Shown here piece by piece: positions 3,962-42,365 of a DNA stretch of 64,000 nucleotides; position 1 is the stretch's first letter, and the number at the start of each line of letters is the position of its first letter. This DNA comes from Caldilineaceae bacterium (lineage in GTDB: Bacteria > Chloroflexota > Anaerolineae > Caldilineales > Caldilineaceae): assembly GCA_034428395.1 (NCBI GenBank), contig DAOUHX010000424.1, positions 62,679 through 126,678 of the forward strand, in the 5' to 3' direction. The notes beneath the pieces were generated by a model. It searched no databases, had not been told where the DNA came from, and saw only the letters and a program-made list of their open reading frames with translations. The position numbers were made by a program, and so were the translations under genes.

Positions 3962-3967
3962 TCCCGG

Positions 3968-8497: not shown

Positions 8498-8680
8498 TCG
8501 ATGGCTCCTTTGCTTCTGGCGCAGCCGTCTGCTGTCAAAGAGAGCGGGAATATAGCTACATGGTAAGGCGAGCAGGACGCCATTGTCAAGTGAAGCCGAC
8601 GTTCCCCAAGTCATTGCGTGCAACCCGGAACTCCACTGCAAGCATCCAGACCCCTGGCAGCAACTAAGTCATTCGCGGCC

Positions 8681-10421: not shown

Positions 10422-10596
10422 TGCCAACCATGCCCCGCTCGGCAACCGTATGGCGCACCCGTCGTCTCAAGGTAAGTCTTCACGAGCGCGGCGCTGCCAA
10501 GCCGCAATCTTGAATTGCGCAACTGTTCAAATAGGCCATCCTCCCGCCTTGCAGGCAGCAATCCAGAAATCTTCACAAGGATTGGCAGGTATCAGC

Positions 10597-12081: not shown

Positions 12082-12106
12082 GTGATAGGAGCGAGAAACT
12101 TAGCTC

Positions 12107-13090: not shown

Positions 13091-13114
13091 CAGCCCCCAA
13101 GAACTCCTGGAGCG

Positions 13115-16075: not shown

Positions 16076-16435
16076 TCAACCCAGGAGACGGCCAAAGAAA
16101 GGTACCGGGGCGCGCCGTGCGCGTAAGACGTTGACGATCCCCGCGACCCAGGCTACCACCACCGCAATGTAGACCGCGACGACAAGGGCAAAGACGTAGG
16201 CCGCGATGACGCCGCCAAACGGTATGAAGGAAACAAGGGCCGAAAAGAGAAACCAGGCGACCGGCGCCAGGACCAGCGCCAGCACGAGCGTCAGCCCCTG
16301 CAGTGCGTGGTAACGTCCGAAGCCGTCCTCCCTGCGGAGCAGGAGAATGTAGGCCGAGCCCAGGACAGGAGTGAGATAGGCGAGCAGGGCAACGTCGATA
16401 TTGATCCTCCCCGGGCTGCCCGCGCTCTCACTCAT
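16076..16435 (-). CDS. DUF4870-like small membrane protein
   Basis: 119 aa from ATG 16435. [31 protein letters not shown] resembles the DUF4870 signature, and there are 3 TM segments. The start overlaps the upstream ATPase stop (ATGA, 16432-16435). The track ORF is over-extended to 16576. Confidence 0.5.
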
Positions 16436-25319: not shown

Positions 25320-26309
25320 CTAGCCGGCGCCGTTCGGCCCCGCAGCGCGCAAGACCTTGACGCGCAACCAGATGGCGGGCAAGCGCCTCAACTTCCTCCA
25401 GGCGCTCACATGGGCGCGTCGGCTAAAGACATCGTAGTCGTGCGCTTCAATGTCTGCCAGAATTGCACGATACAGGTCGGCAGCAACGGAGATCGCAAAG
25501 TGTCCGTCGGCGCTAAGGAGGGAGATGCCGGGCCAGGACTCCCGATAAAGCCGGCGCGTGCGGTCGATCTGGAAACGCATGAACTCTCGCCAGCGACCGT
25601 CGACGATCCCCGCATCGATATCGCTTTCCTCGAGGCCGAAACGGTGAAGGTCCTCAAGCGGCAGGTACAGACGACCCGCCCGCCAGTCCTCGCCCACGTC
25701 TCGCAGAATATTGGTCAACTGTAGGGCCACGCCCAGCTTCAGCGCGTACGGAAACGCCGCGGCGGAACTGAAGCCGATAATGTACATGCACATGAAGCCT
25801 ACCGTTGCAGCCACGCCATAGCAGTAAGCCGTCAACTCTTCAAAGGTCTCATACCGGCTGATGTCGATATCACGTGCGACTCCCTGAAAGAGTTGCTCTG
25901 CGAAAGCCGGTGGCATGCGATAGCGCAGGCGGGCGTCTGTCCAGGCCGCGACGATGGGATCGTTTGCATCGACCACCGTGGTCATGGAACGCGCACGCCA
26001 GGCTTCAAAGGCAGTTCTCAATTGAATCGCGTTCGCACGGCCTTCAGCCGGCCTGTCGACGATGTCGTCCGTGCTGCGACAGAAGGCGTACAATGCACGG
26101 ACGGAGCGGCGCTTGCGCTTGGGAAGGAAACGCGAGGCCGTAAAGAAGGAGCGGCTGTTGATCGCGGTGATCGCTTCACAATAGTCATAGGCGAGCGCAA
26201 GGGCCTCTTCGTTTGCGACCTGAAGGGCCGGCGCCAAGCCTTCCGACAGCCTGGCTTCGTTCGCGAGCGAGAGAAGGGGACGCTCCCATTCACTGATCAC
26301 ATTAGCCAT
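25320..26309 (-). CDS. crtB: Phytoene synthase
   Basis: [36 protein letters not shown] and [22 protein letters not shown] are the two Asp-rich squalene/phytoene synthase signatures. Start re-set to ATG 26309. Confidence 0.85.
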
Positions 26310-26803
26310 TCGAGCACCTTTGCTCCTGGATCCCACGCGCTGCCAAAGACTGCCGCGAGTCTAAGCATGAAGATTGCCGTCTGTCAGTAAGAACGTATCC
26401 CATCCTGGCCAGTCTCGTCAAGGCAAAATGAAGTGAGTGCCCAATTCTTCCAAAAATTCGAGGAGCCAAACGAGGAGTCAACACTCAGCCGGCCATGTGG
26501 CCTCTGGGAAGGGGAAATGGCGCCAGCCGAAAACGGGCGTGGCACCAAGACGGCGCGTTCATCCTACGCCTCGGTCGCCCGCGGCTGCTCTTCAACTGAA
26601 AGCGTGTGATCTCGGGATGGCGGTTCGACGGGGAACCTGAGAGTGGGGAACTGTTGCCAGGGCCCAGGTCGCTAAGCGAGCTTAACCAAGGGGCAGTCCG
26701 CTGCAAACAATAGGGCAGTTGCGTCTTCTTGCCTCATTCGCCCGCCTTGCATCTGCCCTTTTTGAAGGACAGGCTGAACGACGTATCGCCCTGTTCGCCG
26801 GGA

Positions 26804-27337
26804 TTACGGCGCGTGCGGGTCGCCCAAACCAGAAGCCGGTCGGCGCCTGACTGGTCGGGCCTGCGACCTGGCAGCTTCATTGAGCAGGATTCTCTGAGTA
26901 ACGCGGAAGAAGGCAGCCAGGTCGTCGTCCGTTACACCGTCGGTCAGGGCATCTTCGAACTCTCTCATGCGCTTGTCGATGTCATTGGCCAGCGCTCTTC
27001 CCTCTTTGGTCAGGGAAAGAATAACGACCCGGCGATCATTGCGGAGGCGGCGACGACGCAGAAACCGGTCGTCGACCAACTTGGCCACAAGGCGGCTCAT
27101 GCGGGGGGCTCCAACAGGAATCAGTTGGAGCAGCTCTGTGCTCGTCCAGCGGTCCCTGTGCAAGAAGCGGCGCAGCACCGCGAAGTGAAGAGAGCTGAGA
27201 TCGAAAGGCGCAACAATCTCGTCGACTCCCTTCGAGGCTGCCTTCACCAGGGTGATTGCGCTGGTACCAAGATCGGTGGGGAGGGCTCCCAATTCGAGAG
27301 CAGTCCCGAGCGAGTCCTTCTTCAGGTAGTTTGTCAT
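26804..27337 (-). CDS. MarR family transcriptional regulator
   Basis: 177 aa. Winged-helix segment PRMSRLVAKLVDDRFLRRRRLRNDRRVVILSLTKEGRAL is typical of MarR. Confidence 0.8.
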   Translation of the reverse strand: MTNYLKKDSLGTALELGALPTDLGTSAITLVKAASKGVDEIVAPFDLSSLHFAVLRRFLHRDRWTSTELLQLIPVGAPRMSRLVAKLVDDRFLRRRRLRNDRRVVILSLTKEGRALANDIDKRMREFEDALTDGVTDDDLAAFFRVTQRILLNEAARSQARPVRRRPASGLGDPHAP

Positions 27338-27375
27338 GGCGCAGTGTCGAATCGAACCCGAAGAGGAGATCCGGG

Positions 27376-27391
27376 TCCCCCATCAGGGGGA
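27376..27391. promoter_or_regulatory. Perfect 6-4-6 palindrome upstream of marR (possible operator)
   Basis: TCCCCCATCAGGGGGA lies 39 nt upstream of the marR start codon. MarR-family proteins commonly bind palindromes in their own promoter regions. Confidence 0.25.
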
Positions 27392-27963
27392 ATTCAAGTG
27401 ATAGACTGCCGAGGGGGAAAGGGGGTTTTTTCTGTTCGATCTTTCAGAACTTCAAGTAGCGACTCCTAGTCGAAGGCCTGTTGCCAACCGGGCAGGAATC
27501 ACTGAGTCTGCTGCTGTTGGTCCATCCAAAGCACGGGGGTGTGCGGTCAGACCCTCTGGCAGGAAATACTTCGGTGGGTTTGCAAAGGCTTGTACGGCAT
27601 ACAACACTGTACCAGCCATGAAGAAAGTATACAGCATGGCTGACAATTGGCGCAAACGAAGAGCCTGACTGATTCAAAATAAAGCGAGGTCGTACGTGAT
27701 TCACCCTGTCAGTGGCCGTAGCGGGAAGAGCGTAGGAGATTGAGAGACGGCCCCCGGCCGTACATGGATCCAGCGTCCCCAGAGCCGACAAGGGCGCCGG
27801 GCGGGGGCCTTGGGCACAATGGCCCCGCGCAACTACGCTCCGTCCGGGCTGACGCCTCTGCCCCCGCGCTTACTGGATTCTCCGCGCAAGGGTTCTGTCC
27901 GTGTTCAGTCCACAATGGCCGTACACATTCCTATACCCCGTGCAGCAACCGAGCCTTCCCCGC

Positions 27964-28272
27964 CCACTGCAGTCCCCGGCCACGAATCACGAATCCCGGC
28001 CGCTCTGGGCGGTCGGGCCTTTCCGGCCCTCCCTTGTGCGGGGGACCCCCTGCAACGCCCCCCTGACACCTCTCCTCCAGCCACGTGCCGCTGCTTTGGA
28101 CAGTCAGAGGTCAGCGCAGCCGTGGTGATGCCATCGTGTGTCCCCGGTTCCAGCTGACGTGTCAGCGCCAGCAAGGGTGTGCCGCCGTGCCGCCGCGTCC
28201 CCAGCCGATCGCGCGTTCACCCGGCGCCTCCAGTTCCTGACCACTTATCACTATCCACTATCCACTGCAGTC
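27964..28272. repeat. Dispersed copy of the 8681-9516 repeat element, bounded by an 11-bp direct repeat (MITE/REP-like)
   Basis: CCACTGCAGTC occurs at 27964-27974 and 28262-28272. Inside are CACGAA heptads, GGTCGGGCCTTTCCGGCCCTCCCTTGTGCGGGGGACCCCCTGCAACGCCCCCCTG (28011-28065, matching 8731-8789), a degenerate 51-bp-type sub-repeat, and TATCCAC heptads (28249-28265). Confidence 0.7.
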
Positions 28273-28392
28273 AGGCCTTGGGCCTGCTGCCCCTCCCAGA
28301 ACCGGCAAGCAACTCCAGCAATCGCTGGCATGCAACTCCCGCCAGACGACTCCCACCCCAACAGTGGGCTGCACCTGTACCGTGCAGAAAAC

Positions 28393-28422
28393 TGGACAAG
28401 ACCTTAACAAATCCGGTATAAT
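28393..28422 (+). promoter_or_regulatory. Candidate sigma70 promoter of the MerR/B12 regulator gene
   Basis: TGGACA (28393-28398), 18-nt spacer, TATAAT (28417-28422). About 50 nt upstream of ATG 28473. Confidence 0.4.
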
Positions 28423-28472
28423 CTGGTGAATCCGGCTCCTTTGTTGTGCACAATCGGCGAAAATGAGGCTCT

Positions 28473-29873
28473 ATGAACGCGGAGAGTCCCACATTCAATC
28501 TCAAGGCAGTGGTGCAGGAAACGGACATAAAGGCGGAGACGTTGCGCGCCTGGGAGCGTCGCTACGGCATTCCCCGCCCTGAGCGCAGCCCCGGAGGGCA
28601 TCGCGTCTATTCGCGGCGAGATATCGAGACGCTGCACTGGCTGAAGCGGCGCAAACTGGAGGGACTCAGCATCAGTCGGGCTGCGGCCCGCTGGCATGCC
28701 GTCGTCAGCGCAGGTGGAGACCCACTCCAGGATCCGGGCGAGGCCAAAGCCGCGTCTGGGGCCGGTCGAAGGTCATCTCACGAGCCTCTTGCAGGCCGGC
28801 AACGCTCTCCCGAACACGACCTTCAGGTCGCAGCCGCACGTTCGGAGTGGCTAGCAGCGTGTCTTGCCTACGACGAAATCGCCGCCATTGATGCGCTGAG
28901 TCAGGCCTTCGCGCGTTTCTCCGTCGAGACCGTCTGTCTCGACCTTCTATGTTGGGCCTTGAGGCAGCTGGGTGAAGAGTGGCACGCCTGCAATGCCGCC
29001 GTGCAACAGGTACACTATGCCACAGGACTTGCCATGCAGCGGATCGAGATCCTGCTCGGCGGGTCCCCGCTCGGCCGGCGCCCGGGCCAGATACTACTAG
29101 CCTGCCCACCTGAAGAGCATCATACCTTCGGGCTCGCCCTGCTGCAGCTCTTCCTCAGGCGGAGAGGTTTCAGCACCGTAAATTTGGGCGGCAACGTCCC
29201 ACTGCAAGAGATGGAGAAGACGGTCCAGAAGACACGTCCCGACCTTGTCATCCTCTCGGCACAGCAACTGCATTCGGCCGGCAAACTGCTCGATTTGAGC
29301 GAAGTGATTCTCAGGCAGGATGTGCCGGTCGCCTTCGGCGGAAGGGTCTTCAATGCCTCGGAGTCAGTTCGGGCCGGCATCCCAGGCCACTTTATTGGAA
29401 CCGACCTGTTGGAGGCGGCCGGCGCTGTTGAGTGCCTACTGACGGGCACGCCACCTCCGGTCAAGCGTGCCCCTTCTTCGGCATCCTACGATGCCGCCCT
29501 CGCCGACTATTTCTCAAAGCGCCCCCTGATATTGGCTCAGGTCTGGACCGGCCTCATTTCCACGTATGAGACACAGGAAACGCTGGCCCAGGTCGACTCT
29601 TTCCTTTCCAGGAACATCATCGCCGCGCTGCGATTCGGGGACCTGTCGCTGCTCGCGATCGACGCCGATTGGCTCTGCGCGCTTCTTCATCACAGAGAAG
29701 TTCCTGTCTACGTGCTGGAAAAGTTTCTTACTGCCTATCGGTCGGCCGTAATCTCGGTGCAGGGTCGATTGGGGCACCCCGTTGCGGAGATGTTGGACAT
29801 TTTTCTGGAGCAAGTTCGCTCGCAAAACGAGCGCATCGTAAGCGCAAAAAACGACCACGCAAAGGACGCTTGA
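28473..29873 (+). CDS. MerR-family regulator with a cobalamin-binding domain (CarH/LitR-like) and a ~170-aa C-terminal extension
   Basis: N-terminal MerR HTH (LKAVVQETDIKAETLRAWERRYGIPRPERSPGGHRVYSRRDIETLHWL). B12-binding signature E-x-H-x-x-G (EHHTFG), then S at +42 and GG about 27 residues later. The helical-bundle segment reads W-x9-VH (GEEWHACNAAVQQVH). Confidence 0.75.
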   Translation: MNAESPTFNLKAVVQETDIKAETLRAWERRYGIPRPERSPGGHRVYSRRDIETLHWLKRRKLEGLSISRAAARWHAVVSAGGDPLQDPGEAKAASGAGRRSSHEPLAGRQRSPEHDLQVAAARSEWLAACLAYDEIAAIDALSQAFARFSVETVCLDLLCWALRQLGEEWHACNAAVQQVHYATGLAMQRIEILLGGSPLGRRPGQILLACPPEEHHTFGLALLQLFLRRRGFSTVNLGGNVPLQEMEKTVQKTRPDLVILSAQQLHSAGKLLDLSEVILRQDVPVAFGGRVFNASESVRAGIPGHFIGTDLLEAAGAVECLLTGTPPPVKRAPSSASYDAALADYFSKRPLILAQVWTGLISTYETQETLAQVDSFLSRNIIAALRFGDLSLLAIDADWLCALLHHREVPVYVLEKFLTAYRSAVISVQGRLGHPVAEMLDIFLEQVRSQNERIVSAKNDHAKDA

Positions 29874-31606: not shown

Positions 31607-32404
31607 GTGGAAAGGGCGCAGGGCGGTCGCGTGAAAGTAATCACACGGAGCAAAACGTTTACTGCTGAAGGAAGTGCCGGGGTTCCCCCTGAAGGTGTCG
31701 TCCACCTGTGGTCTTGGCTTCTGCCCGTGGAGGAACTGACCCTGTCAGAACTCGAAGGGACGCTGTCCGACGACGAGTGGCGACGCGTCCGCCGCCTCCG
31801 TTCGCACCGCGACGCCCGCCGCTTCATCTCACGCAGGGGAATGATGAGGCAGATCCTGGGCAGCTACCTGGAATTGCACGCCCACGAACTGGCGTTTTGC
31901 TACGGGGGGCAGGGGAAGCCCTTCCTGGCTCCGTCCCAGGCGCGTTCTCTTTCCTTCAATCTTAGCGATTCAGGGGAATTGGCTGTTCTCGCCGTCTGCT
32001 CCGGCCATCCGATCGGCGTTGACGTCGAGCGTATTCGGCCGTGCACCGAAGCCGCCGGGATAGACGCAGTCGCCTTCGCCCAAAGCGGAATCGGGCAGGC
32101 GAATGCCCGTCCTCCATTAGTCGACGCAGACTCATTCTTTCGGTCCTGGACCAGGAAAGAGGCCGTCGTCAAAGCCAGAGGCAGCGGCCTCCAGCTCTTG
32201 TCCGGGGGGATGACCCCTTCTCAGGCAGCCCATGCCCTTCCACCACCACCGCACAGTCAACTCGATGATGGGCCCGGACCCTGGCGCGTCTACCCGCTTC
32301 CCCTGCCTCCCTGTTACGCCGGCGCGCTGGCGGCATCTCAGGAAATAGAGACGATCGCCTGCTTTCCCTGCGCCCCCGATCTTGCGCCGGTTTCAGGCCC
32401 TTAG
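31607..32404 (+). CDS. 4'-phosphopantetheinyl transferase, Sfp type
   Basis: VHLWSW...RFISRRGMMRQILGSYL...GKPFLA...FNLSDSGELAVLAV...GVDVERI...FFRSWTRKEAVVKARG are the Sfp-family motifs. GTG start at 31607, or 31631. Confidence 0.8.
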   Translation: MERAQGGRVKVITRSKTFTAEGSAGVPPEGVVHLWSWLLPVEELTLSELEGTLSDDEWRRVRRLRSHRDARRFISRRGMMRQILGSYLELHAHELAFCYGGQGKPFLAPSQARSLSFNLSDSGELAVLAVCSGHPIGVDVERIRPCTEAAGIDAVAFAQSGIGQANARPPLVDADSFFRSWTRKEAVVKARGSGLQLLSGGMTPSQAAHALPPPPHSQLDDGPGPWRVYPLPLPPCYAGALAASQEIETIACFPCAPDLAPVSGP

Positions 32405-32505: not shown

Positions 32506-33318
32506 TCATTCTCTCACGTTGTCCACCCCCAACGCCTCCAGCCGCGTCGCCATCTTCTCCCGCGCTTGACCGCCCTTCCGCATCATCTCCCTGCTGTAAA
32601 CGCGTGGATGATTCTCGTTCAAATGGGCGCGAACGGTCGCGCGCAGAGCGGAGATTTCCAGCAGATCGTCCAACGGATCGGGTGTGTAGCCAATGAACAT
32701 TGTGCGGCGCGGCCGCCCGTCGCTGCGCCTGAACGCGGAGTGCCACAGACGATTGTCCCATAGCACAACGTCTCCCGGACTCGTCTCCAGGGAAACCGCG
32801 CCGGGAACATCACGAGGATCGAGCCGCAGGCGCGGGCGCCGCTCATCCCAATAACCGCAGGAGCGGAAGACGGCCGCACAGAATTCAGGATGATGGCTGC
32901 CCGGGATTACATTCAGGGCACCCTGGCTCGCGTCCTGTTCGTCGAGGTAGATAGCAGTCTTCAACGTGAGTACCTCACGCCCGGGGGCACCGTCGGAGTG
33001 CCATGGCGTGTCATCCAGATTGGCCCACATGTCGCTGCCGCCGTTATAGAGACATTCAGTGCCCCAAATGTCGCGCATCGCCTCCATCACACCGGGATGC
33101 TCGATGAGTTCGCCGAAGGCGTCATCTGCCTCGACAAAGGGCGAGAGCGTTCTCGTGCCGGCTCCTCCGCCGAAATAGTTATTGACCGGGGCGCCCGCAA
33201 TGACGCGATCGTGCGCCTCCAGCAGGCGGGCGACTTCGCGCGAGCTGAGGCAGCTCCTCAGGACAACATATCCGAACGCACGAAATCTACCGATCTCCAG
33301 GTCTGGTAGCATGCCCAC
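32506..33318 (-). CDS. Phytanoyl-CoA dioxygenase (PhyH) family Fe(II)/2-oxoglutarate oxygenase
   Basis: 270 aa. WHSDG (HxD), NVIPGSHH, and VVLWDNRLWHSAF (distal His) fit the PhyH fold. Confidence 0.8.
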   Translation of the reverse strand: MGMLPDLEIGRFRAFGYVVLRSCLSSREVARLLEAHDRVIAGAPVNNYFGGGAGTRTLSPFVEADDAFGELIEHPGVMEAMRDIWGTECLYNGGSDMWANLDDTPWHSDGAPGREVLTLKTAIYLDEQDASQGALNVIPGSHHPEFCAAVFRSCGYWDERRPRLRLDPRDVPGAVSLETSPGDVVLWDNRLWHSAFRRSDGRPRRTMFIGYTPDPLDDLLEISALRATVRAHLNENHPRVYSREMMRKGGQAREKMATRLEALGVDNVRE

Positions 33319-33339
33319 TTCCCTCTGCTGCTTTTCTCT

Positions 33340-34383
33340 TCATGAATCCGATTGGCCTCCGGCCAGCGCGCGGTGGCGCAGGAGAAGCTGCCCGGCCTCC
33401 CCGTTGGCAGCGTCAAGCAGCGCCCTCATGTACCCTACGGCAAAGGCTACGGAGGTATGGTTTTTTTCACCATCAACTCCCAGGCCAGGCACGTGGTCGT
33501 ACATTAGCGCGCCTTCATACCCCACTTCTTTGTATGTCAGCATGGCTTCCAGCGCGTCGACGTGGCCTTCATCGATGAAGGTTTCGGAGAAAGCGGGCAC
33601 CGTCCCCGTCACGTTGCGGAAGTGAACGTAGAAGATCTTGTCCCTGCAACCGAAATACCTGATCGCGTCGAGAACATTACCCGGCATCTCCGAAACAGTG
33701 CCCTGGCAGAACCACAGGCCGTTATAGTCGCTGGGCTCGATCTCGATGAAACGCTTCAACGCCGCGTGGCTCCTCATAATGCGAGCAACACCGGCAATCG
33801 GCGAGATAGGCGGATCGTCAGGGTGAAGCGCCATCCTCACCCCAGCCTCCTCGGCAACCGGAATAACGGCCTTGAGGAAATACGCAAGGTTCTCCCACAT
33901 CTGCTCGTCCGTCACCTCCTGCTCCTCGCTGACCGGAGGGTCCCAGTAGTCCTGCCTGGCGCCCTGCACGAGGTCATAGTCGAAGCTCGGCACAATCGCA
34001 CCGCCCCGGCCGCGCGTCGTCTTGGAGGTTCGCAATCCATAGTTGCCGTCGCGGCAGCGCAGTGAGAAAAAGTAGCCCAGCACCGGCACGCCGGCAGCGC
34101 CCATGTTTCTCAGTGACCTGCACCAGTTTTCTATCTGCTCGTCTCTGCCGGGAAGTCCCAGTTTTATCTTGTCGCACCAGTCCTGCGGAACGCCGCCAAG
34201 AACTGCCCACTTCAGGCCGGCATCCTCGATTTTCTGCTTCAACAGTAGGAGGTCTTGAAACTCGTAGTAGCCTCTGTCCGAACTGCCAATGAGCTGGCCT
34301 CCCGCGTCGACGTGCGTGGCACCCAGTTGCCGCGCCAGCGTCAGAGATTCATTGCCATAGCCGGAAGACATTGCCAGCTTCAT
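33340..34383 (-). CDS. UxuA-like (mannonate dehydratase family) protein, second paralogue
   Basis: KLGLPGRDEQIENWCRSLRNMGAAGVPVLGYFF and FYVHFRNVTGTVPAFSETFIDEGHVD parallel the gene at 6550-7527. Start re-set to ATG 34383. Confidence 0.7.
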   Translation of the reverse strand: MKLAMSSGYGNESLTLARQLGATHVDAGGQLIGSSDRGYYEFQDLLLLKQKIEDAGLKWAVLGGVPQDWCDKIKLGLPGRDEQIENWCRSLRNMGAAGVPVLGYFFSLRCRDGNYGLRTSKTTRGRGGAIVPSFDYDLVQGARQDYWDPPVSEEQEVTDEQMWENLAYFLKAVIPVAEEAGVRMALHPDDPPISPIAGVARIMRSHAALKRFIEIEPSDYNGLWFCQGTVSEMPGNVLDAIRYFGCRDKIFYVHFRNVTGTVPAFSETFIDEGHVDALEAMLTYKEVGYEGALMYDHVPGLGVDGEKNHTSVAFAVGYMRALLDAANGEAGQLLLRHRALAGGQSDS

Positions 34384-34487
34384 GCGCGTATTTTGGCACA
34401 CCCCGCCGAATGCAAGCCGGGCGGGCCGCCTCCCTCCAATAGATCCCAACTGTTCAATTATTGGCCCCGAAAGGCCGAGAACGGGCT

Positions 34488-35696
34488 CTAATCAAACTGC
34501 CGGTCGCTCTGATGGAACGCTTTGCCCTTGCCCCGAACCAGATCGGCCCTCTGCCAGGTCCCTATCGTCCGGCAGATATAGTGGCCCTCGCCGAGACTCG
34601 ATTTCAGCTCCTCTTGCGTGACCCATTGGTGGGGCGTGCTGTCCGGCATCTCCAAGTCCAGCCCTTCGTCCAGCACGGCATACACCCGGCAGATGCCCTC
34701 CTCCATCTCAATGTCTTCGATGTAGGTCATCCACGGAATGTCCACCCCTATCTGATCTTTCGTCAAGGCCTGCAGGGAAGCGATCCGCGCTCCCACGTCC
34801 CAGCCGCCCGTACCCTCCTCTTCCCATCCCTCGCCTCCGGGCAGGTCCCAGCAATCGTTTTCAATGTCGCCCAGAAGCAGAAACTGGGATTCCCCGCCCG
34901 ACGAGCGCTCGATCAGCAAGCGCGTCGTGGTAATCGGCTTGTCAAAGCAGACCGGAATCAGCCGTTTGCCTGCGTCGCTAAGCGCGTTCAGCGCGGCCGG
35001 ATTGTACGGATAATAGCCCGCCGCGGGCGGCGCACTGGACGCGCAGAACTTATGGAAAATGCCGCAGCGGTCTTCCAGTGCCGTGCCTGTCGGTGCCAGG
35101 TGCCACGTATGCTGGTTCGCCAGCAACAGGTCGCCCGCCCTCAGCTCCGGATCAACGAAAGGGGCCAGTTGCTCCGGGTCGGGGCCCCGAAGGTCCAGAA
35201 CGCGCGCCTCCTCGTCAACAACCTGAGTCAGCTTATGCGAGCCGGGAGAGACCAGAAACTGCCCGAACTCAACGTCGAAATCCGTGAGCGGAATGATGGC
35301 GAACATCCAGTTCATCGAGGAGCCGACCGGCCGCCAGCGCTTGTAGTCGCAGTGCGCGGGACCTCCCTTATTACCCGGAGTGCGCACGTAGGCGACGAAC
35401 GCGGCAAGATGGGCCGGCTGACCCAACAGGCCCTCGACTGCGTCGATCATGCCCGCGTGTTCTGCCATCGGGGCCATCCCCGGTTCAGCCAGCTTGTTGC
35501 CGCTGACCGTGTATTTAGCCGGCTCAGGGTATTTCAGCGTGGGCGGGTACGCGTTGATCTGCGCCTGTTGCCGAACGACACCGCGCCAGGCTTCAACTTC
35601 GTCAGCGGAAAGTAGATTGCGAACGATCAGATAGCCGTCCTCTTCGTAGCTGGCCTTCTGCTCTTCGCTGATGGTCGAACGCACTGTCATCGTCAT
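34488..35696 (-). CDS. PhyH-family dioxygenase fused to a C-terminal degenerate Nudix-like domain
   Basis: 402 aa. N-terminal YEEDGYLIVRNLLSADEV, HCDY (HxD) and NQHTWHLAP. The C-terminal ~150 aa carry CWDLPGGEGWEEEG... (Nudix-like LPGG) but lack the REUxEE catalytic box. Confidence 0.65.
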   Translation of the reverse strand: MTMTVRSTISEEQKASYEEDGYLIVRNLLSADEVEAWRGVVRQQAQINAYPPTLKYPEPAKYTVSGNKLAEPGMAPMAEHAGMIDAVEGLLGQPAHLAAFVAYVRTPGNKGGPAHCDYKRWRPVGSSMNWMFAIIPLTDFDVEFGQFLVSPGSHKLTQVVDEEARVLDLRGPDPEQLAPFVDPELRAGDLLLANQHTWHLAPTGTALEDRCGIFHKFCASSAPPAAGYYPYNPAALNALSDAGKRLIPVCFDKPITTTRLLIERSSGGESQFLLLGDIENDCWDLPGGEGWEEEGTGGWDVGARIASLQALTKDQIGVDIPWMTYIEDIEMEEGICRVYAVLDEGLDLEMPDSTPHQWVTQEELKSSLGEGHYICRTIGTWQRADLVRGKGKAFHQSDRQFD

Positions 35697-35960
35697 CGCG
35701 CTTTCTCCACGTGGAAAAGGAAGTGAGGGGACTACTGTGTCTTGTTGTCGCTTCGGCTCCGGAGGAGACAGGACCTCCCCACCGGCCGCTGCGCCATTCC
35801 GAGCCCTTTCGCCCAGCCGCGCCCGTCAGGGCTGAACTTGCATGTGGTAGCCAGCATACCAGAAGCATCTGGACCGAGAAAGCCGCGATTCCGGTCTCGC
35901 CGCAGGCTTCCAACAAGGCAAAGCGGCAGATCAGGCCTGCTTGGCAGCACTTAGGCGGGC

Positions 35961-36797
35961 TCAATATCTGTCTTCGCTCGCACCCAGTGCTTCGAAGTGC
36001 TCCCGTTCCGCCTCTGTGCGCGCAGCCAGCTCGAGCAAGGGATCCACCATGGCGCGGATGCGCGGGTGGTCGCTCTTGAGGAACGCCTCGTCCGGCTGAA
36101 ACATGCTGCCGCGCCTGTTGTAGCGCATAAAGGAGGCGATCTGCTCGTCGGTCTCCAGCTTGCCGGCAAACCGCAGCTTCAGAAAGCGCCGGCCAGGCTG
36201 CATTCCATATACGCCGTGGTAGATCTTCTGACTGAAGAAAACAATGTCGCCGGGATCGGACTCGATGACGACGCCGGGCATTTCGGTCGGGCTTAGCCCA
36301 AGGAACTTCCTGGCTGTCTCCCCGGTCTGCTCGTTGAGCGGGAGCAGCTCGTCGTAGAGAGGCGGCTTGTGCGATCCGGGTATCAGGCGAAGCGCGCCGG
36401 TGTCAGCCCGGAGCCTTTCCAGGTAGAGGTGGAAGCTGTACGTGTTGGCATGGGGCTCGCTGGGTCTGTCGGTGTGCCAGTGGTGTATTCCCTTGTCGTT
36501 CACGCCCTCGTTGTTCAGGCTGCCTCCCGATCCGTTCCAGATGAATCCCGGCCCCAGCAGGGCCTCAACCGTCGCCCAGATTCGGTCGTCCACCAGCATG
36601 TTCGTAAACACTTCGCTCTTCTCTACGATGTCGAAAATGCCCTCATTCTTGCCTGTCGGAGGGCCTCCTCCTCGTTGCTCCCAGAAGAGCCTGTCCGCTT
36701 CCACGGAGGCAGCCGCCATCTCTTCGGCCGAGAACTGCTGCCGGAGGTGAATGAAGCCAAATACATCGAAGCGGGCCTTCTGCTGTGGTGAAATCAT
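35961..36797 (-). CDS. PhyH-family Fe(II)/2-oxoglutarate oxygenase
   Basis: 278 aa. FDVFGFIHLRQQFSAEEM, HWHTD (HxD), LRLIPGSHKPP, and IVFFSQKIYHGVY. Confidence 0.8.
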   Translation of the reverse strand: MISPQQKARFDVFGFIHLRQQFSAEEMAAASVEADRLFWEQRGGGPPTGKNEGIFDIVEKSEVFTNMLVDDRIWATVEALLGPGFIWNGSGGSLNNEGVNDKGIHHWHTDRPSEPHANTYSFHLYLERLRADTGALRLIPGSHKPPLYDELLPLNEQTGETARKFLGLSPTEMPGVVIESDPGDIVFFSQKIYHGVYGMQPGRRFLKLRFAGKLETDEQIASFMRYNRRGSMFQPDEAFLKSDHPRIRAMVDPLLELAARTEAEREHFEALGASEDRY

Positions 36798-36857
36798 GAT
36801 CTTTCCGCCCTTGTTTTCTCAGGGTTGCAGCCATGGCGCACCGGGCCTCTCATCCCG

Positions 36858-37775
36858 TCAGCGCACCAGCATTCGCGGGTCGAGTGCGTCGCGTAGTCCG
36901 TCGCCTATAAAGTTGATCGAAAGCACGCAGGTCGTAATCATCATGCCTGGCGGTATCCAGAGCCAGACCATGTGCTGAATGATGTGGATCGATCTTGCTT
37001 CGTTGATCATCGTGCCCCAGCTCGGCGTTGGCGCCTGAACGCCCAGGCCCAAAAAGCTCAGGCCGGCCTCGGTGAGAATGGCCCCGGCCACGCCAAAGCT
37101 GGCCGCGACCACAAGCGGCGCCACAATATTGGGCCCAACATGCTTGACTATAATGCGGCTCTTTGCCACGCCAATCGACTCTGCCGCCGTAATGAAGTCC
37201 ATCTCGCGAATGGCCAGAATCTGCCCGCGCACCAACCGCGCAATGCTTGTCCAGTTGATCAGCCCAATCGCCAGCATAGTGTTTTGCAGACCGGGGCCGA
37301 CGATCGCAACCACGCTGATGAGAATGATCAACGTGGGAAACGACATCACGACGTCGGTAAGACGCATGATGATCATGTCGACCTTGCCGCCGTAATAGCC
37401 GGCCAGACAGCCCAGCACAGTACCGATGCTCAGATAGATCGCCACCGCCACGAGACCCACCGACATCGATATGCGTCCGCCATACACGATGCGGCTCCAG
37501 CGGTCCCTCCCGTTCAGATCCGTACCCAGAAGGTGGTCCCGGCTCGGCGGCACGCCCACCTCTCTCAGATTCCCGCGAATCGGGGACAAGGGGGCCACAA
37601 CGGATGCAAGCGGAAAGGACATGAGTACTACAATCACGATGTATATTGCCCCCGCCAATGCCAACCTGTGCCTGACAAAACGGCGCAGTGTCTGGAAACG
37701 GCGCTCCGGAAGCGCCGCGGCCACCGCATTGTGAACTTGCTCGGAGCCGGGACTTTCAATGGACTCGACGGCCAT
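36858..37775 (-). CDS. ABC transporter permease (DppC/OppC-like)
   Basis: 305 aa. 6 TM. EAA-loop region AAESIGVAKSRIIVKHVGPN. Confidence 0.85.
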   Translation of the reverse strand: MAVESIESPGSEQVHNAVAAALPERRFQTLRRFVRHRLALAGAIYIVIVVLMSFPLASVVAPLSPIRGNLREVGVPPSRDHLLGTDLNGRDRWSRIVYGGRISMSVGLVAVAIYLSIGTVLGCLAGYYGGKVDMIIMRLTDVVMSFPTLIILISVVAIVGPGLQNTMLAIGLINWTSIARLVRGQILAIREMDFITAAESIGVAKSRIIVKHVGPNIVAPLVVAASFGVAGAILTEAGLSFLGLGVQAPTPSWGTMINEARSIHIIQHMVWLWIPPGMMITTCVLSINFIGDGLRDALDPRMLVR

Positions 37776-37828
37776 GACCTTTTTTTCGAGGCGATTGCCC
37801 TTTGTGCTCTTCCAAAAGTCTCTTTGTC

Positions 37829-38809
37829 CTACTCATAGCGGATGCGTGGGTCGGCCACCGCGTAAGCGAGGTCCGCCGCAAGATTGCTCAGGACAATGAG
37901 GACGGCTGACAACAGGACCATACTCATGATCAGGGGATAGTCGCGGGCTGAGACTCCGTCAAGGTACAATCTACCCAACCCGGGCCAATCGAAGATTGTC
38001 TCAATGATCAGTGCGCCGCCAAACAGCCCGGGAATCTGCAGGCCGGCGATCGTGATCACCGGGAGAATAGCGTTGCGAAAAGCGTGTTTGTAGATCACCA
38101 TCCGCTCCCGCAAACCTTTGCTGCGCGCCACGGTTACATAGTCGGTGCGTAATACCTCCAGCATGCTCGCACGCGTGTAGCGCATGTAGGTCGCCATGCC
38201 TTCGATCGCCAGCACACCTGCCGGCAGGACCATGTACTTGAGCCTGTCAAAAAAGGTGGTAAAAAAACCTGCGTCGGTCAAGGTGACAGTCGAGTAGCCG
38301 CTGGTCGGCAGCCACCTCATGTTCACGGCAAAGAGGTAAAGGACCACAATCGCGGCAAAGAAGTTGGGAATCGAAATTCCGGTGAACACGAACACGGTGA
38401 AGACATAGTCCGCCCAGGAGTACTGCCTGACTGCCGAAAAGATCCCTAAGGCAATTCCTCCGATCAGGGCTATCAGCCCTGAAGTCACCATCAGCTGAAG
38501 CGTGGCCGGCAGACGCCGTCCAATTGCGTTCGATACGTCCTCGCGCGTGATGATCCGCTTCCCCAGGTTGCCCGTCAGAATCGACTGCAGCCAGCTCACG
38601 TAGCGCACGGGCGCAGGCTTGTCCAGACCGTAACTGGCCCGCAAGGCCTCCATGTCCAGCTGCAATTCCTGGGTCTCGTCCAACCGCGAGAGGACCATGG
38701 AGGATACGGCGTCACCCGGAGCCAATTCCGTGAAGGCAAACGTTACGACTGTGATGCCCAGCAGCACAGGCAGGGCCAGTGCGATGCGCCGCAGCAGATA
38801 CGTTTGCAT
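37829..38809 (-). CDS. ABC transporter permease (DppB/OppB-like)
   Basis: 326 aa. MQTYLLRRIALALPVLLGIT start; VARSKGLRERMVIYKHAFRNAI EAA loop. Confidence 0.85.
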   Translation of the reverse strand: MQTYLLRRIALALPVLLGITVVTFAFTELAPGDAVSSMVLSRLDETQELQLDMEALRASYGLDKPAPVRYVSWLQSILTGNLGKRIITREDVSNAIGRRLPATLQLMVTSGLIALIGGIALGIFSAVRQYSWADYVFTVFVFTGISIPNFFAAIVVLYLFAVNMRWLPTSGYSTVTLTDAGFFTTFFDRLKYMVLPAGVLAIEGMATYMRYTRASMLEVLRTDYVTVARSKGLRERMVIYKHAFRNAILPVITIAGLQIPGLFGGALIIETIFDWPGLGRLYLDGVSARDYPLIMSMVLLSAVLIVLSNLAADLAYAVADPRIRYE

Positions 38810-38866
38810 TGCTTGCCTCGAAAAGCGTGTCGCCGGCTATAGTGGCGGATCGCTGCCCCGCCTGGT

Positions 38867-38916
38867 CTCCCCTCCCTCCCAACGCCGCTCAATTGCCAGG
38901 CCGGAAGGGAGGGGAG
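38867..38916 (-). other. Stem-loop (11-bp perfect stem) in the SBP-permease intercistronic gap
   Basis: CTCCCCTCCCT (38867-38877) pairs with AGGGAGGGGAG (38906-38916), with a 28-nt loop. It sits in the 172-nt gap after the SBP stop. Confidence 0.5.
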
Positions 38917-38981
38917 CCGCCTGCAGCGGCTTTCCCGCTCCGTCGGGTAGTCAAAGAGCGAAGCCTTGACGGGACCGACCG

Positions 38982-40697
38982 TTACTCTTTGAGGTACCAG
39001 GTGTACGGCAGCTGGTCGGCATAGGCCCCCAGTGACAGGAAGAAGCGGTAGTTGCACAGGTCAGACCGGACGGCGATGCGGCGGTCCTGCTGCCAGAACG
39101 GCATGTCGATCACCTCATCTGTCGCAATCTCGGTGATCTCGTTGAATAGCGCCGTTCGCCTCTCAGGATCGAACTCTGTCATCGTAGCGACCGCCAGTTC
39201 ATCATACGCCTCGTTGCAGTAACGCGGCGTATTCGAGCCGTGGGGAGGCACGACCTCACACCGGTATCGCGCCGCGTAGTCCTCCGGCACCATCGGAGCG
39301 CAGCAGCCGTACAGCAAGTCGAAGTCGTCGTCCGACACGACCCTCTCAATCAGCGTTGGGATTTCAACATACTGCGGGTTCACCTTCACGCCAACATCCG
39401 CCCAAAACTGTTGCATGGCCGCAGTGACGCGCTTGTGAATGTCGTCCCCATAGTAGAAGAGAAGGTCCAACTCCCTATCCGCATCCCACTCGGCCTCGGC
39501 CAGAAGCTCCTTGGCCTTCTCCGGGTCGTACGGATAGAGGGTGATGTCCGGGCTCATCCATTCACGATTCGGATCGAACATGAACCAATCGTAGACGATC
39601 GCTTCGCTCCCCCAGATGCCGTCCTGGATCGCCTCCAGGTCCAGCGCGTAGAGAAGGGCCTTTCGCACGCGAATGTCCGCCAGGTTCAGATGGTTGGGCC
39701 GTATGAAAATGGCCCCAAAGGGTGCCCCAACCAGCGCGATATCCGGGTTCTCATCCATGCGGATGCGCTCGGTCCCGCTGGCCTGGGCGCCAACGTGAAT
39801 TTCACCGGCCTCCAGGGCCGCCACCCAGGTCGCCATGCTGGCGCGCAGCCCGAAACGGAAGATGATCTGGTCCAGGTAGGGCCGGCCAGCCCAATAGTCC
39901 TCGTTGCGTTCGAGGACGTAGTACTGGTCCGGCACCAGTTCGGCCAGCTTGAACGGGCCCGTGCCGATCGCTTCCATTGTCGTCCCAACTTCGGAAAAGG
40001 GAATCCCCTCGATCGACGCCTTGCTGAAAATGTTGTCATTGGGAGGAATGCTGCGCAGGAAGTTGGGCTCCGGCGTGAGGAAATGGAACTCAATTGTGTG
40101 ATCGTCGATCACCTTCAACCCCGAGATCTCGTCGGCCTCGCCCTCTTGGAACGCCACCGCGCCTACAAGGTTCGCCAAACTGCCGCTTTGGCCGCTGGCG
40201 CTTTCGGGATGCGCGAACACCTCATAGGTGTACTTCACGTCCTCCGCCGTAAATGGGCTTCCGTCGTGAAACAGCACGCCCTGCCTCAGGTGGAACGTAT
40301 AGGTGTGCAGATCATCCGAAATGTCCCAGCTCTCTGCCAGTTCCGGAACGATCGCATAGGTGCCTGCCTGGGCCTCAACCAACTGGTTGAAAATATAGGA
40401 GTTGTTGGTATCCGAGAGCCAACCCGACCCCTCCAGACCGCGGGCCGCAGCGGTACTTACGATAGTGCCTCCATAGCGCGGCGGATCATCCGCGCATAGG
40501 TTAATCCAGGTAGCGCCAAGCGTCTCAGGATCGTACCAGTCTGTCGGCGCCAGGACTTCCGTTTCCGGCTGGTCCTTCGGCGCGGCGACAGGCTCCTCCG
40601 CCTCGGTGGCTTCGGTGGCGGGGGTCGGCGCAACGCAGCCGGCGAGCAGCACCGCCGCTGCAATTGCCAGATATGCTACCAGCATACGGGCTCGCAT
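38982..40697 (-). CDS. ABC transporter substrate-binding lipoprotein, family 5
   Basis: 571 aa from ATG 40697 (AAGGAGG upstream). Lipobox MRARMLVAYLAIAAAVLLAGC, followed by a family-5 SBP body. The track ORF is over-extended to 40913. Confidence 0.85.
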   Translation of the reverse strand: MRARMLVAYLAIAAAVLLAGCVAPTPATEATEAEEPVAAPKDQPETEVLAPTDWYDPETLGATWINLCADDPPRYGGTIVSTAAARGLEGSGWLSDTNNSYIFNQLVEAQAGTYAIVPELAESWDISDDLHTYTFHLRQGVLFHDGSPFTAEDVKYTYEVFAHPESASGQSGSLANLVGAVAFQEGEADEISGLKVIDDHTIEFHFLTPEPNFLRSIPPNDNIFSKASIEGIPFSEVGTTMEAIGTGPFKLAELVPDQYYVLERNEDYWAGRPYLDQIIFRFGLRASMATWVAALEAGEIHVGAQASGTERIRMDENPDIALVGAPFGAIFIRPNHLNLADIRVRKALLYALDLEAIQDGIWGSEAIVYDWFMFDPNREWMSPDITLYPYDPEKAKELLAEAEWDADRELDLLFYYGDDIHKRVTAAMQQFWADVGVKVNPQYVEIPTLIERVVSDDDFDLLYGCCAPMVPEDYAARYRCEVVPPHGSNTPRYCNEAYDELAVATMTEFDPERRTALFNEITEIATDEVIDMPFWQQDRRIAVRSDLCNYRFFLSLGAYADQLPYTWYLKE

Positions 40698-41231
40698 CGG
40701 GACTCCTCCTTGGGAATAGCTCAAGTTGTGCAAGATCGTGCAATCACGTTCGACTCGACAACCATCTGCAAGACATACACCCCGAGAGAAACCGAGAGGC
40801 AGGCTGGCCAGGCCTGTGAATGAAGCAGCGCACTTCATCTTGTGGGCAAATCCGCTCCTTTCGCTCGGAAACTGCAGCCGCACGCTGTCAAAAAAGATGC
40901 CGGCAACACCCATTCAGCAGGTGCGGTCAAAGGACTGCGGGAACCCGTCGCCGAAAACTGCGCCGCAATGCGGCGGCGGTTGACAACGGGCCCCGGCCGC
41001 CTTCGACCGCTGCCGTGCTTCAATCGGAAACGTCGCCGCGGCCAGCACGGGTTGGTCGATGGAGTTTCGATCCTTGACGCCTGTCTTGGCTTCTGCGGCA
41101 ACAGCGAAGTTTGCATGGATGTAGTAGTCTCCCGGTTACCCCGCAAAGGGCTGCCAAGGACAAGACTGAAATCCCGCTCTTTCCGGCGTCGGACCAGCAA
41201 GCCAGCAATCAAGACACCGGCATCACCTACC

Positions 41232-41259
41232 ATAATAATGAAATATAAGTGAAAGTCAA
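41232..41259 (-). promoter_or_regulatory. Candidate sigma70 promoter far upstream of the SBP gene
   Basis: On the minus strand: TTGACT (41259-41254), 16-nt spacer, TATTAT (41237-41232). If used, it gives a leader of about 525 nt. Confidence 0.3.
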
Positions 41260-41372
41260 GGGAGCAAAAAGAGGCCCGGGCCGCCTTCCATTGGGCGAAG
41301 CCTTGCAGCATAGGATATAATAACGAACCGAAATTCGGAGACGCCAGACCTACTTGTGAAGGACGATCCAGC

Positions 41373-41663
41373 ATGGCCCGTCGTAGCAGACGCCGCCGAT
41401 CAAGCCCCAGCAGAGCCAACCCGCGCAGTTACAGCGGCCTGCGGCCGAGAGTTGAATTGGAGCAAGGCCAGCCCGAGCCGCCCCGATCCGAGCCAAGACC
41501 GGCTGTAGAAGGGCCGCAGCAGCAGCCCGCCCCAGCCGGCACTAGCAAAGCCCAGGCCGACTGGAAAAACGAATACAGCCGTGTTTTCTCCGACCTGAAA
41601 CAGCTGCTCGTCGTTTCGGTCGCTCTGTTTGCCCTGATGCTGGTGGTGGGATTCTTCCTGTAG
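41373..41663 (+). CDS. Small tail-anchored protein (Arg-rich N-terminus, Pro/Gln-rich middle, C-terminal TM)
   Basis: 96 aa: MARRSRRRRSS...KQLLVVSVALFALMLVVGFFL*. No family recognised; coding status inferred only from the ORF and TM pattern. Confidence 0.4.
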   Translation: MARRSRRRRSSPSRANPRSYSGLRPRVELEQGQPEPPRSEPRPAVEGPQQQPAPAGTSKAQADWKNEYSRVFSDLKQLLVVSVALFALMLVVGFFL

Positions 41664-41681
41664 AGGCTGCTGCCCGATCCA

Positions 41682-42365
41682 TCAATTGGGCCGAGGTTGC
41701 CGCTGTGCCGGCGGTTGCCGCCACTGCAGAACCGCGCGAATGCCGGCATGAAGCAGCCACGACAACCAGAAGTTGCGCGTATACAGAAAAAGGCTGGTCG
41801 TCGACAACAGGATTGCCGCCGAAATCAGGCGATTTGAGTTGCCCCTCGAATGAAGGATGACGCCGGGCACGGCCAGCGCGGCCCCGAGCCATGTTGACCA
41901 GTACTGGACTACCTGGTCCGGCGCCGGAAAGGATATTAGCAGGTCCAGCGACGCGCCGCGCAGAAAGCACCAGTGGAACTCCTGAGCGCTGCTCTCTATC
42001 CACATCATGAGCGAAAACTGACCCGCACTTCGCTCGCCAGGAGGAAGGCCTCTCTCGCTATGGAGCCAGATGCGGACGATAACGAGCAGGGCCAGCATTC
42101 CCGCCAGCACGACTAGACCAACGCGTAAGCCCAGCGACCAGTCGAGGTAGGAAACGCCCATCGAGCGGGGGGACAAATCCCCCACAACCAGGCCCAAATA
42201 CGGCAGGGAGACCCACCGGACCACGCGCAGAGTTCGCTCCAGGCCCGGGGCGAATAGCCGTGCCAGACCGGAGGTAAATCCGGCCAGCAGAAAACTTGAG
42301 GCCAGCCATAGCCCCGCCCGCGTAGGGGCCGCACTCAGTTGCTCCAATATCCACGCGATGTCCAT
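41682..42365 (-). CDS. Polytopic membrane protein, possibly a degenerate CPBP (CAAX protease-like) family member
   Basis: 227 aa with about 6 TM. ESSAQEFHWCFLRG loosely resembles the EExxxR/FRG motif; the other CPBP motifs are not convincing. Confidence 0.4.
   Translation of the reverse strand: MDIAWILEQLSAAPTRAGLWLASSFLLAGFTSGLARLFAPGLERTLRVVRWVSLPYLGLVVGDLSPRSMGVSYLDWSLGLRVGLVVLAGMLALLVIVRIWLHSERGLPPGERSAGQFSLMMWIESSAQEFHWCFLRGASLDLLISFPAPDQVVQYWSTWLGAALAVPGVILHSRGNSNRLISAAILLSTTSLFLYTRNFWLSWLLHAGIRAVLQWRQPPAQRQPRPN

Follow-up and report, generated by a model that had tools for sequence, protein, structure and literature searches.

A transport-linked cluster of three PhyH-family oxygenases and a UxuA-like enzyme in a sponge-associated Caldilineaceae genome

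In the sponge-symbiotic Poribacteria, no Pfam domain is more abundant than PhyH, whose function there is largely unknown (Kamke et al. 2014, PMC3909097). Precedents for PhyH enzymes that act on sugar moieties are FJS/PHYHD1, which O-demethylate 2'-O-methyl ribose in free nucleosides and include an enzyme from Poribacteria (PMC12709175), and the sugar-modifying enzymes KanJ, SnoK/SnoN and EvdO2. Sponge Caldilineae have been described as degrading carbohydrates and uronic acids and as having many ABC importers (PMC6306507). Here we describe a seven-gene cluster at positions 32506-40697 of a 64-kb stretch of contig DAOUHX010000424.1 (hereafter the window), from a Caldilineaceae genome derived from sponge metagenomes, with identical or near-identical copies on metagenome contigs. 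The cluster joins Opp/Dpp-type importer genes to three PhyH genes and a UxuA-like gene. We propose that it encodes a catabolic import-oxidize-dehydrate route of a sponge-associated Caldilineaceae bacterium, more likely for a modified carbohydrate-like compound than for a peptide, and we give this reading about an even chance (roughly 0.5).

Like the Opp/Dpp importers (PepT family, TC 3.A.1.5), the cluster has a family-5 solute-binding protein (SBP) lipoprotein with OppB-like and OppC-like permeases behind it in the customary sequence, but it lacks cognate OppD/OppF ATPases, and co-oriented enzyme genes come directly after the transporter genes. With the Poribacteria PhyH repertoire (PMC3909097), it shares the sponge habitat and the protein family, including homologs of one oxygenase (PhyH-B) at 62-69% identity. 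It differs from that repertoire in belonging to Chloroflexota (Caldilineaceae), in linking a PhyH triple to transport genes together with a UxuA-like gene, and in the fusion of one PhyH to a Nudix-fold domain, a fusion without mention in the consulted passages of that paper. All seven genes lie on the minus strand, and the cluster reads from 40697 to 32506 in the following order:

38982-40697, minus strand: SBP5 lipoprotein, 571 aa from an ATG at 40697 (PF00496, E=1e-79; lipobox LLAGC)
37829-38809, minus strand: OppB/DppB-type permease (permease B), 326 aa (BPD_transp_1, E=1.4e-40, plus BPD_transp_1_N)
36858-37775, minus strand: OppC/DppC-type permease (permease C), 305 aa (BPD_transp_1, E=7e-31, plus OppC_N)
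35961-36797, minus strand: PhyH-A, 278 aa (PF05721, E=1.5e-14)
34488-35696, minus strand: PhyH-B, 402 aa (PF05721, E=3.7e-16 on residues 17-202, then ~150 residues)
33340-34383, minus strand: UxuA-like enzyme, 347 aa from an ATG at 34383 (PF03786, E=5e-54, 183.8 bits)
32506-33318, minus strand: PhyH-C, 270 aa (PF05721, E=8e-19), beginning 21 nt past the UxuA-like stop codon

An earlier note on this sequence had described seven co-directional genes separated by 21-264 nt, with no ABC ATPase and no regulator among them. We found each gene at its coordinates on the minus strand with agreeing Pfam assignments, measured gaps of 172, 53, 60, 264, ~104 and 21 nt, and detected neither an ABC ATPase nor a regulator between 32506 and 40697. 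No intergenic gap of the cluster contains a terminator-like site on the coding strand, which is compatible with, and no proof of, a single transcription unit. Upstream, the cluster is bounded by a 985-nt gap containing a divergent 96-codon open reading frame (ORF); downstream, an Sfp-type 4'-phosphopantetheinyl transferase (PPTase) gene at 31607-32404 on the plus strand converges with PhyH-C. For a riboswitch or other RNA element ahead of the SBP gene that might hint at the ligand, Rfam at its gathering thresholds returned only one tRNA across the window, and a search at E<=1 over 40500-41800 gave no credible match. A promoter scan found a single good sigma-70-like site (41259-41232), which precedes the SBP start by 535 nt; the number of such sites was not above that in shuffled sequences, and the scan is uninformative for a Chloroflexi genome. 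Among ORFs of at least 80 aa in six frames, the cluster's three are the only PhyH genes in the window.

All three PhyH proteins score well over the PF05721 gathering cut-off of 22 bits (55.2, 60.5 and 69.2 bits for PhyH-A, -B and -C). We judged the catalytic columns in 24 diverse PhyH proteins, including the Poribacteria enzyme with proven 2-oxoglutarate (2OG)-dependent activity (PMC12709175). The HxD...H iron triad and the 2OG Arg form invariant or near-invariant columns, and each of the three proteins carries them: H108, D110, H194 and R203 in PhyH-A; H115, D117, H199 and R210 in PhyH-B, invariant in 30 homologs; and H107, D109, H193 and R204 in PhyH-C, whose WHxD aligned with that of EvdO2. 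Judged by these residues, PhyH-A, -B and -C are predicted to be catalytically competent, hydroxylase-type Fe(II)/2OG oxygenases, and the description of three paralogous Fe(II)/2OG oxygenases linked to transport genes holds, with the motifs intact in all three. The HxD motif rules out a halogenase identity for any of them. Their pairwise identity is only ~23-26%, indicating old paralogs rather than a recent tandem duplication.

The best solved relatives of the PhyH proteins match at E ~1e-5. EctD is at or near the top for PhyH-A and PhyH-B; the relatives of PhyH-B and PhyH-C include the sugar-modifying KanJ, SnoK/SnoN and EvdO2 at E ~1e-5, and the nearest to PhyH-C is EvdO2 (4xab, E=1.9e-5). 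The cluster proteins and FJS/PHYHD1, KanJ, SnoK/SnoN and EvdO2 have a common PhyH fold, HxD...H triad and 2OG Arg, but the similarity is family-level only (E ~1e-5 to 1e-3), without orthology. We rejected two specific identities. The ectoine hydroxylase EctD model TIGR02408 gave 17.5, 18.1 and 19.5 bits against a cut-off of 336.5, and in BLASTP against the Poribacteria and Sphingomonas FJS/PHYHD1 demethylases the best match covered 31 residues at E=0.001; PHYHD1 structures were also absent from the PDB sequence matches of PhyH-A, -B and -C. The PhyH-A subfamily is rare, with 41 matches at E<=1e-30 among 1.84 billion representative proteins. Homologs of the cluster enzymes bear generic names only. 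None of the four enzymes has a close homolog of characterized function, and the NCBIfam equivalogs score far under their cut-offs, in agreement with the earlier statement that the cluster matches no described pathway.

The C-terminal domain of PhyH-B (about residues 252-390) is predicted to adopt a Nudix fold. An AlphaFold2 model of full-length PhyH-B was poor overall (pLDDT 51) and confident in the C-terminal region, for which Foldseek returned Nudix-fold proteins only. The model of the isolated domain (pLDDT 73.8, pTM 0.70) gave 127 Foldseek matches in the PDB at E<=1e-3, and the top 50 all have the Nudix fold; the top matches include Ap4A hydrolase, NrtR, AraR, the MutY C-terminal domain, MutT and Dcp2. 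By sequence, we obtained no match of Pfam NUDIX to the PhyH-B C-terminus even at E<=1, no match at E<=10 in a PDB profile search with the domain, and no match of the domain to another long PhyH by hhalign. The label "Nudix-like" that the earlier note gave to PhyH-B therefore stands at the level of the predicted fold and does not stand by Pfam or by sequence.

Compared with the consensus GX5EX7REUXEEXGU, the Nudix box of PhyH-B is degenerate (LPGGEGWEEEGTGGWDVGARIASLQALTKDQIG): LPGG is retained, R304 is followed by Ile, and there is no EE pair. The domain also contains an invariant acidic run, GWEEE. Because the box is degenerate, we expect a ligand-binding role rather than pyrophosphatase activity, and the domain is probably a non-catalytic ligand-recognition module. 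NrtR, Bacteroides AraR and the MutY C-terminal domain likewise have the Nudix fold (Foldseek E 2e-6 to 1e-4, TM 0.5-0.6) and have lost the catalytic REuxEE residues; the PhyH-B domain differs from them in its fusion partner, an Fe(II)/2OG oxygenase where they have a DNA-binding or glycosylase domain. PhyH-B has >500 full-length homologs at 62-87% identity; in the few cases where an organism is named, it is Candidatus Poribacteria. Copies from Caldilineaceae and Poribacteria are 62-69% identical over the full length, and the column identity averages 79% in an alignment of 30 sequences. Such values are unusually high across phyla and suggest transfer among sponge symbionts.

The UxuA-like gene most likely starts at the ATG at 34383 ("MKLAMSS") rather than with the longer TTG ORF, as its homologs start with "MKLA". 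The protein matches solved mannonate dehydratases (3ban at E=2e-40, and also 1tz9 and 4eac), and its HPDDPP, C-x-G, H-x-R-N-V and D-H motifs align to 3ban/1tz9 and are invariant among 15 homologs. It thus shares the Pfam family, the TIM-barrel type and the aligned motifs with the UxuA D-mannonate dehydratases of the Escherichia coli glucuronate pathway and Streptococcus suis (ManD). However, it is ~30-50 residues shorter and scores under both NCBIfam cut-offs, for the UxuA equivalog and subfamily (TIGR00695, 115.9 vs 199.55; NF003027, 153.6 vs 191), and the recurrent neighbors of this short form are PhyH, ABC importer, RraA-type aldolase and enolase-superfamily genes. We consider the cluster enzyme a putative metal-dependent dehydratase with a xylose-isomerase-like TIM barrel. 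The short form, of ~325-335 aa, has thousands of members.

We found no uxuB, uxaC, kdgK or kdgA-type partners among the annotated genes of the window, including all of 14.5-47.8 kb, and hexuronate pathway genes were not among the commonest neighbor families in 65 UxuA-like loci. A second short UxuA-like paralog, 43% identical to the cluster copy, lies at 6550-7632 on the minus strand, with a nucleoside-hydrolase-like gene on one side (5566-6504) and the gene for a DHDPS-family aldolase on the other (7583-8641). The 6550-8641 region looks like a dehydratase and aldolase pair.

The SBP has a signal peptide ending in the lipobox LLAGC. The SBP and the permeases score highest against the Opp4A, DppA and Opp4B/C models. 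All NCBIfam equivalog scores of the SBP are far under the cut-offs (Opp4A, 210 bits vs 650; DppA, 142 vs 1005); permease B is likewise under every equivalog cut-off, and permease C reaches 356 bits against the 350-bit cut-off of Opp4C. In a phmmer alignment of the SBP to E. coli DppA (1dpe), of moderate confidence, the position of Asp408 is occupied by Pro and the PVQRP loop, which carries Arg355, is deleted. In DppA, Asp408 is joined by a salt bridge to the ligand's charged N-terminus and is strictly conserved in the DppA family, and its absence has served as a criterion to rule out dipeptide binding (PMC3295651). The cluster SBP differs from DppA in lacking this anchor for the peptide N-terminus, making a peptide a less likely ligand. 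In some bacteria, Thermotoga among them, the cargo of Opp-family binding proteins is oligosaccharides, so a non-peptide cargo would not be exotic.

Only two PepT-type (oligo_HPY) ATPase genes occur in the window, and both are part of another Opp-like locus, itself complete, at a distance of 8-16 kb from the cluster:

24014-25075, minus strand: OppD-type ABC ATPase of the neighboring Opp-like locus (ABC_tran plus oligo_HPY)
16432-17448, minus strand: OppF-type ABC ATPase of the neighboring Opp-like locus (ABC_tran plus oligo_HPY)

These same two genes had been named beforehand as candidates. They probably energize the cluster importer in trans, as inferred from their being the sole PepT-type ATPases in the window; the spacing of the OppD-type gene is preserved in two relatives (L005 and L007). 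We note that a membrane-anchored protein of ~600 aa with five CxxCH heme-binding motifs and weak matches to multiheme cytochromes (17460-19262, minus strand) is wedged between a permease and the OppF-type ATPase of this second locus, an odd site for a cytochrome gene.

Scanning genome contigs with PhyH-B returned five Caldilineaceae genomes, in which all seven genes are syntenic. The flanks are syntenic as well (AhpC, a hypothetical gene, the PPTase and a CarH-like regulator). The most distant syntenic relative, L006 (60-82% identity), retains the permease/PhyH-A and UxuA/PhyH-C junctions, and between PhyH-A and PhyH-B a GH4 glycosidase gene is inserted co-directionally (8591-9889 of L006, plus strand). 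This GH4 protein is 42% identical to a GH4 glycosidase encoded at 14507-15907 of the window. Two genes are split across two frames, the SBP gene of L003 (4783-6713) and the PhyH-C gene of L005 (12383-13190); they are either pseudogenes or long-read assembly indel errors. The PPTase diverges much faster among these relatives (45-63% identity) than the cluster genes (80-95%). A seven-gene operon conserved outside Caldilineaceae was dropped as a candidate: the scan gave only Caldilineaceae, and the contexts of distant orthologs differ. The synteny that the earlier note had proposed as a check was thus seen for the full set, flanks included, only within Caldilineaceae; what recurs more widely is a looser, family-level association of UxuA-like, PhyH, importer and aldolase genes.

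To describe this association, we collected 80 metagenome loci with UxuA-like genes 41-67% identical to the cluster copy, called their genes, labeled them with iterated hidden Markov models and checked key cases against Pfam; direct neighbors were counted in 65 unrelated loci (107 direct neighbors). On three long contigs, a UxuA-like gene lies beside or a few genes from PhyH, together with enolase-superfamily, ILVD/EDD, RraA, SDR and BNR genes. Arrangements from unrelated lineages are:

L083: PhyH, then UxuA-like, PhyH, PhyH
L016: UxuA-like, PhyH, then PhyH and MR_MLE on the opposite strand
L074: glycosidase-like gene, UxuA-like, PhyH
L071: UxuA-like, RraA aldolase, MFS, PhyH, UxuA-like, SDR
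L014: UxuA-like, PhyH, ILVD/EDD dehydratase
L012: UxuA-like beside PhyH and MR_MLE
L027 and L029: SBP5, UxuA-like, permease, permease

Among the 107 direct neighbors, the commonest Pfam families were BPD_transp_1 (7), RraA-like and PhyH (5 each), MR_MLE (4), and SDR, SBP5 and ABC_tran (3 each). PhyH genes concentrate close to the UxuA-like gene, with frequencies of 5/107 at one gene, 2/72 at two genes and 1/202 at three or more. In L029, the SBP5-UxuA-permease-permease set adjoins a complete two-ATPase system, the same ATPase-less design as in the window cluster. The SBP5-UxuA-permease-permease and UxuA-PhyH-PhyH arrangements arose independently. At another locus (L024, 2372-8622), SBP5 comes first, then UxuA-like, a radical-SAM activase and a PFL-like glycyl-radical enzyme, and these last may be what anaerobes use in place of the PhyH partners, which depend on O2.

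For the cluster itself, we infer co-transcription, sharing of ATPases, an order of reactions and a class of substrate, as follows. The SBP5 and the two permeases would take up a small organic compound, whether supplied by the sponge matrix or by dissolved organic matter. Energy would come in trans, and the most plausible source is the OppD/OppF-type ATPase pair of the complete Opp-like locus 8-16 kb off. In the cytoplasm, the PhyH trio would hydroxylate the compound or oxidatively strip its substituents (hydroxylation, O-/N-dealkylation, deamination), with the Nudix-fold domain on one oxygenase probably serving ligand recognition. The short UxuA-family dehydratase would turn the resulting hydroxy-acid into a 2-keto-3-deoxy acid, a step we propose because of the chemistry of the family and its co-occurrence with aldolases. 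An aldolase encoded elsewhere would then cleave the 2-keto-3-deoxy product; a candidate is the DHDPS-family gene beside the UxuA-like paralog (6550-8641).

We regard a modified carbohydrate, glycoside or sugar-acid-like molecule as a more likely substrate than a peptide. This leaning comes from the GH4 insertion in L006, from UxuA chemistry with aldolase and dehydratase partners (including the paralog next to the DHDPS-family aldolase), and from the sugar-tailoring enzymes among the nearest solved relatives of PhyH-B and PhyH-C, together with ribose O-demethylation by PhyH-family enzymes (PMC12709175). The earlier note had suggested a peptide-, opine- or amino-sugar-like compound; given the missing Asp408, the GH4 gene and the sugar-acid partners, the peptide and opine options become less likely, and an amino-sugar-like compound fits better.

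Several observations weigh against a dedicated carbohydrate route. Because the flanks of the cluster are also syntenic in the five Caldilineaceae genomes, plain genome collinearity accounts for the conserved gene order, which carries little functional information. Elsewhere, PhyH-B orthologs (64-69% identity) adjoin unrelated genes or only other PhyH genes, PhyH-C orthologs (51-70% identity) lie beside other PhyH, Gfo/Idh/MocA, MR_MLE, BNR, or thiolase and amidohydrolase genes, and the examined contexts of these distant orthologs contain no SBP5 or UxuA-like neighbor. The PhyH proteins next to UxuA-like genes elsewhere are not orthologous to PhyH-A, -B or -C (<=27% identity) and the SBPs in that position are only ~25% identical to the window SBP, values of ~25% by which orthology was ruled out for both. 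The PhyH enrichment comes from few loci (8 PhyH genes in 5 independent loci) and is uncorrected for genome-specific background frequencies. The 264-nt gap between PhyH-A and PhyH-B, which another gene occupies in L006, could accommodate a second promoter. The differing contexts of the PhyH-B and PhyH-C orthologs and the 264-nt gap feed the possibility that chance has brought together four separate units (the transporter, PhyH-A, PhyH-B, and UxuA-like with PhyH-C) in a genome from a PhyH-rich habitat, where multi-PhyH runs also occur elsewhere (e.g., L096 and L083); from the PhyH share of >1.9% of genes reached in Poribacteria (PMC3909097), we estimate ~0.1-0.2 chance triplets per genome. We nevertheless consider chance unlikely, as the rest of the window has no PhyH gene (in ORFs of at least 80 aa, six frames), the genes are co-directional, free of terminator-like sites and, bar one gap, only 21-172 nt apart, L006 at 60-82% identity still has the permease-PhyH-A and UxuA-PhyH-C junctions, and UxuA-like genes independently adjoin PhyH and SBP5/permease genes in unrelated lineages.

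If the genes do work together, the cargo could still be a di- or oligopeptide or an amino-acid conjugate whose side chains the PhyH enzymes hydroxylate, in the manner of ectoine, proline or asparagine hydroxylases, before the TIM-barrel enzyme processes the product, a peptide, amino-acid or opine route. The best sequence matches of the SBP are peptide/dipeptide binders (solved SBPs, E ~1e-43), the permeases likewise score best against Opp4B/C models, and EctD leads or nearly leads the solved relatives of PhyH-A and PhyH-B. Some UxuA-like loci also have amino-acid-type contexts, with an M81/MlrC peptidase plus aminotransferase in L071 and, in L029, a pyridoxal-phosphate enzyme resembling D-Ser dehydratase. 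We find this route doubtful in view of the Pro at the Asp408 position and the absent Arg355 loop (by the PMC3295651 criterion), SBP equivalog scores far under cut-off, an EctD score of 17-19 bits against a cut-off of 336, the sugar-acid type of both UxuA chemistry and its commonest neighbors (RraA, DHDPS, MR_MLE, ILVD/EDD, SDR), and the GH4 glycosidase inserted in L006. Salvage of 2'-O-methylated or sponge-type sugar-modified nucleosides, in which PhyH enzymes would take off or oxidize the sugar modification, the Nudix-fold domain of PhyH-B would bind the nucleoside part and the UxuA-like enzyme would contribute to the breakdown of the modified pentose acid set free, would draw on the demethylation of 2'-O-methyl nucleosides by FJS/PHYHD1 (PMC12709175), on a fold that typically binds nucleotides or sugars, and on the nucleoside-hydrolase-like gene and aldolase flanking the UxuA-like paralog. 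It is very unlikely, with PhyH-A, -B and -C not detectably close to the tested demethylases (best BLAST E 0.001, 31 residues), PHYHD1 structures missing from the PDB sequence matches and the Nudix box degenerate. In addition, Opp/Dpp-type importers are not known to transport nucleosides. Biosynthetic tailoring, with the oxygenases and the TIM-barrel enzyme modifying a secondary metabolite and the ABC parts handling precursor or product, is suggested by the Sfp-type PPTase directly downstream and convergent with PhyH-C, and by the antibiotic-tailoring KanJ, SnoK/SnoN and EvdO2 nearest to PhyH-B and PhyH-C. We hold it to be extremely improbable: the annotated ORFs of the window, with several larger ORFs past ~47 kb unannotated, include no nonribosomal peptide synthetase, polyketide synthase, glycosyltransferase or carrier-protein genes, a binding-protein-dependent system is an importer and not an exporter, and the PPTase lies on the opposite strand and diverges much faster (45-63% vs 80-95%).

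Three further groups of genes were noted in the window. At 25320-29873, a MerR regulator of the CarH/LitR type that has B12-binding domains (28473-29873) is encoded not far from a phytoene synthase (25320-26336), which suggests light-regulated carotenoid synthesis. A conserved trio on the plus strand (10450-14095) comprises circularly permuted ATP-grasp, alpha-E domain and transglutaminase-like genes. A polyphosphate-related run on the minus strand (223-5556) comprises a polyphosphate kinase fragment at the window edge and YceI-like, CHAD-domain and HD-domain phosphohydrolase genes.

Judged by sequence, all parts of the cluster come from known families, and none is placed at the equivalog level for a characterized function. 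What appears to be new is the transport-linked arrangement of three PhyH genes with a UxuA-like gene, the association, at family level, of UxuA-like genes with those for PhyH proteins and ABC importers, and the strongly conserved PhyH-Nudix fusion; a full-text literature search for PhyH together with mannonate dehydratase returned no paper. We also entertain a broader idea, in which the cluster is one case of a widespread catabolic logic of marine, host-associated bacteria: PhyH batteries would strip methyl, amino or similar decorations from modified host sugars or nucleoside-like metabolites after import, a short UxuA-type dehydratase and aldolases would pass the products on to central metabolism, the PhyH-Nudix protein would be an oxygenase of a new type with a Nudix-fold domain that picks out substrates bearing a nucleoside or sugar, and a glycyl-radical version (L024) may operate in anaerobes. 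We think this generalization quite unlikely to hold as a whole.

Because it is compact and linked to transport, and because its PhyH enzymes are all intact and accompanied by a putative dehydratase, the cluster offers a concrete handle on the role of PhyH, a question open since 2014 (PMC3909097), and the PhyH-Nudix fusion, strongly conserved across phyla, gives structural and biochemical studies a defined target. Should UxuA-like, PhyH and importer genes prove not to be linked at family level, the cluster would be an ordinary lineage-specific catabolic operon. If the link is true, thousands of "mannonate dehydratase" labels would need re-annotation, and the link would hint at an unrecognized route for degrading host-derived or dissolved organic matter. 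Should PhyH-based stripping of imported metabolites prove widespread, it would account for the expansion of PhyH in sponge symbionts.

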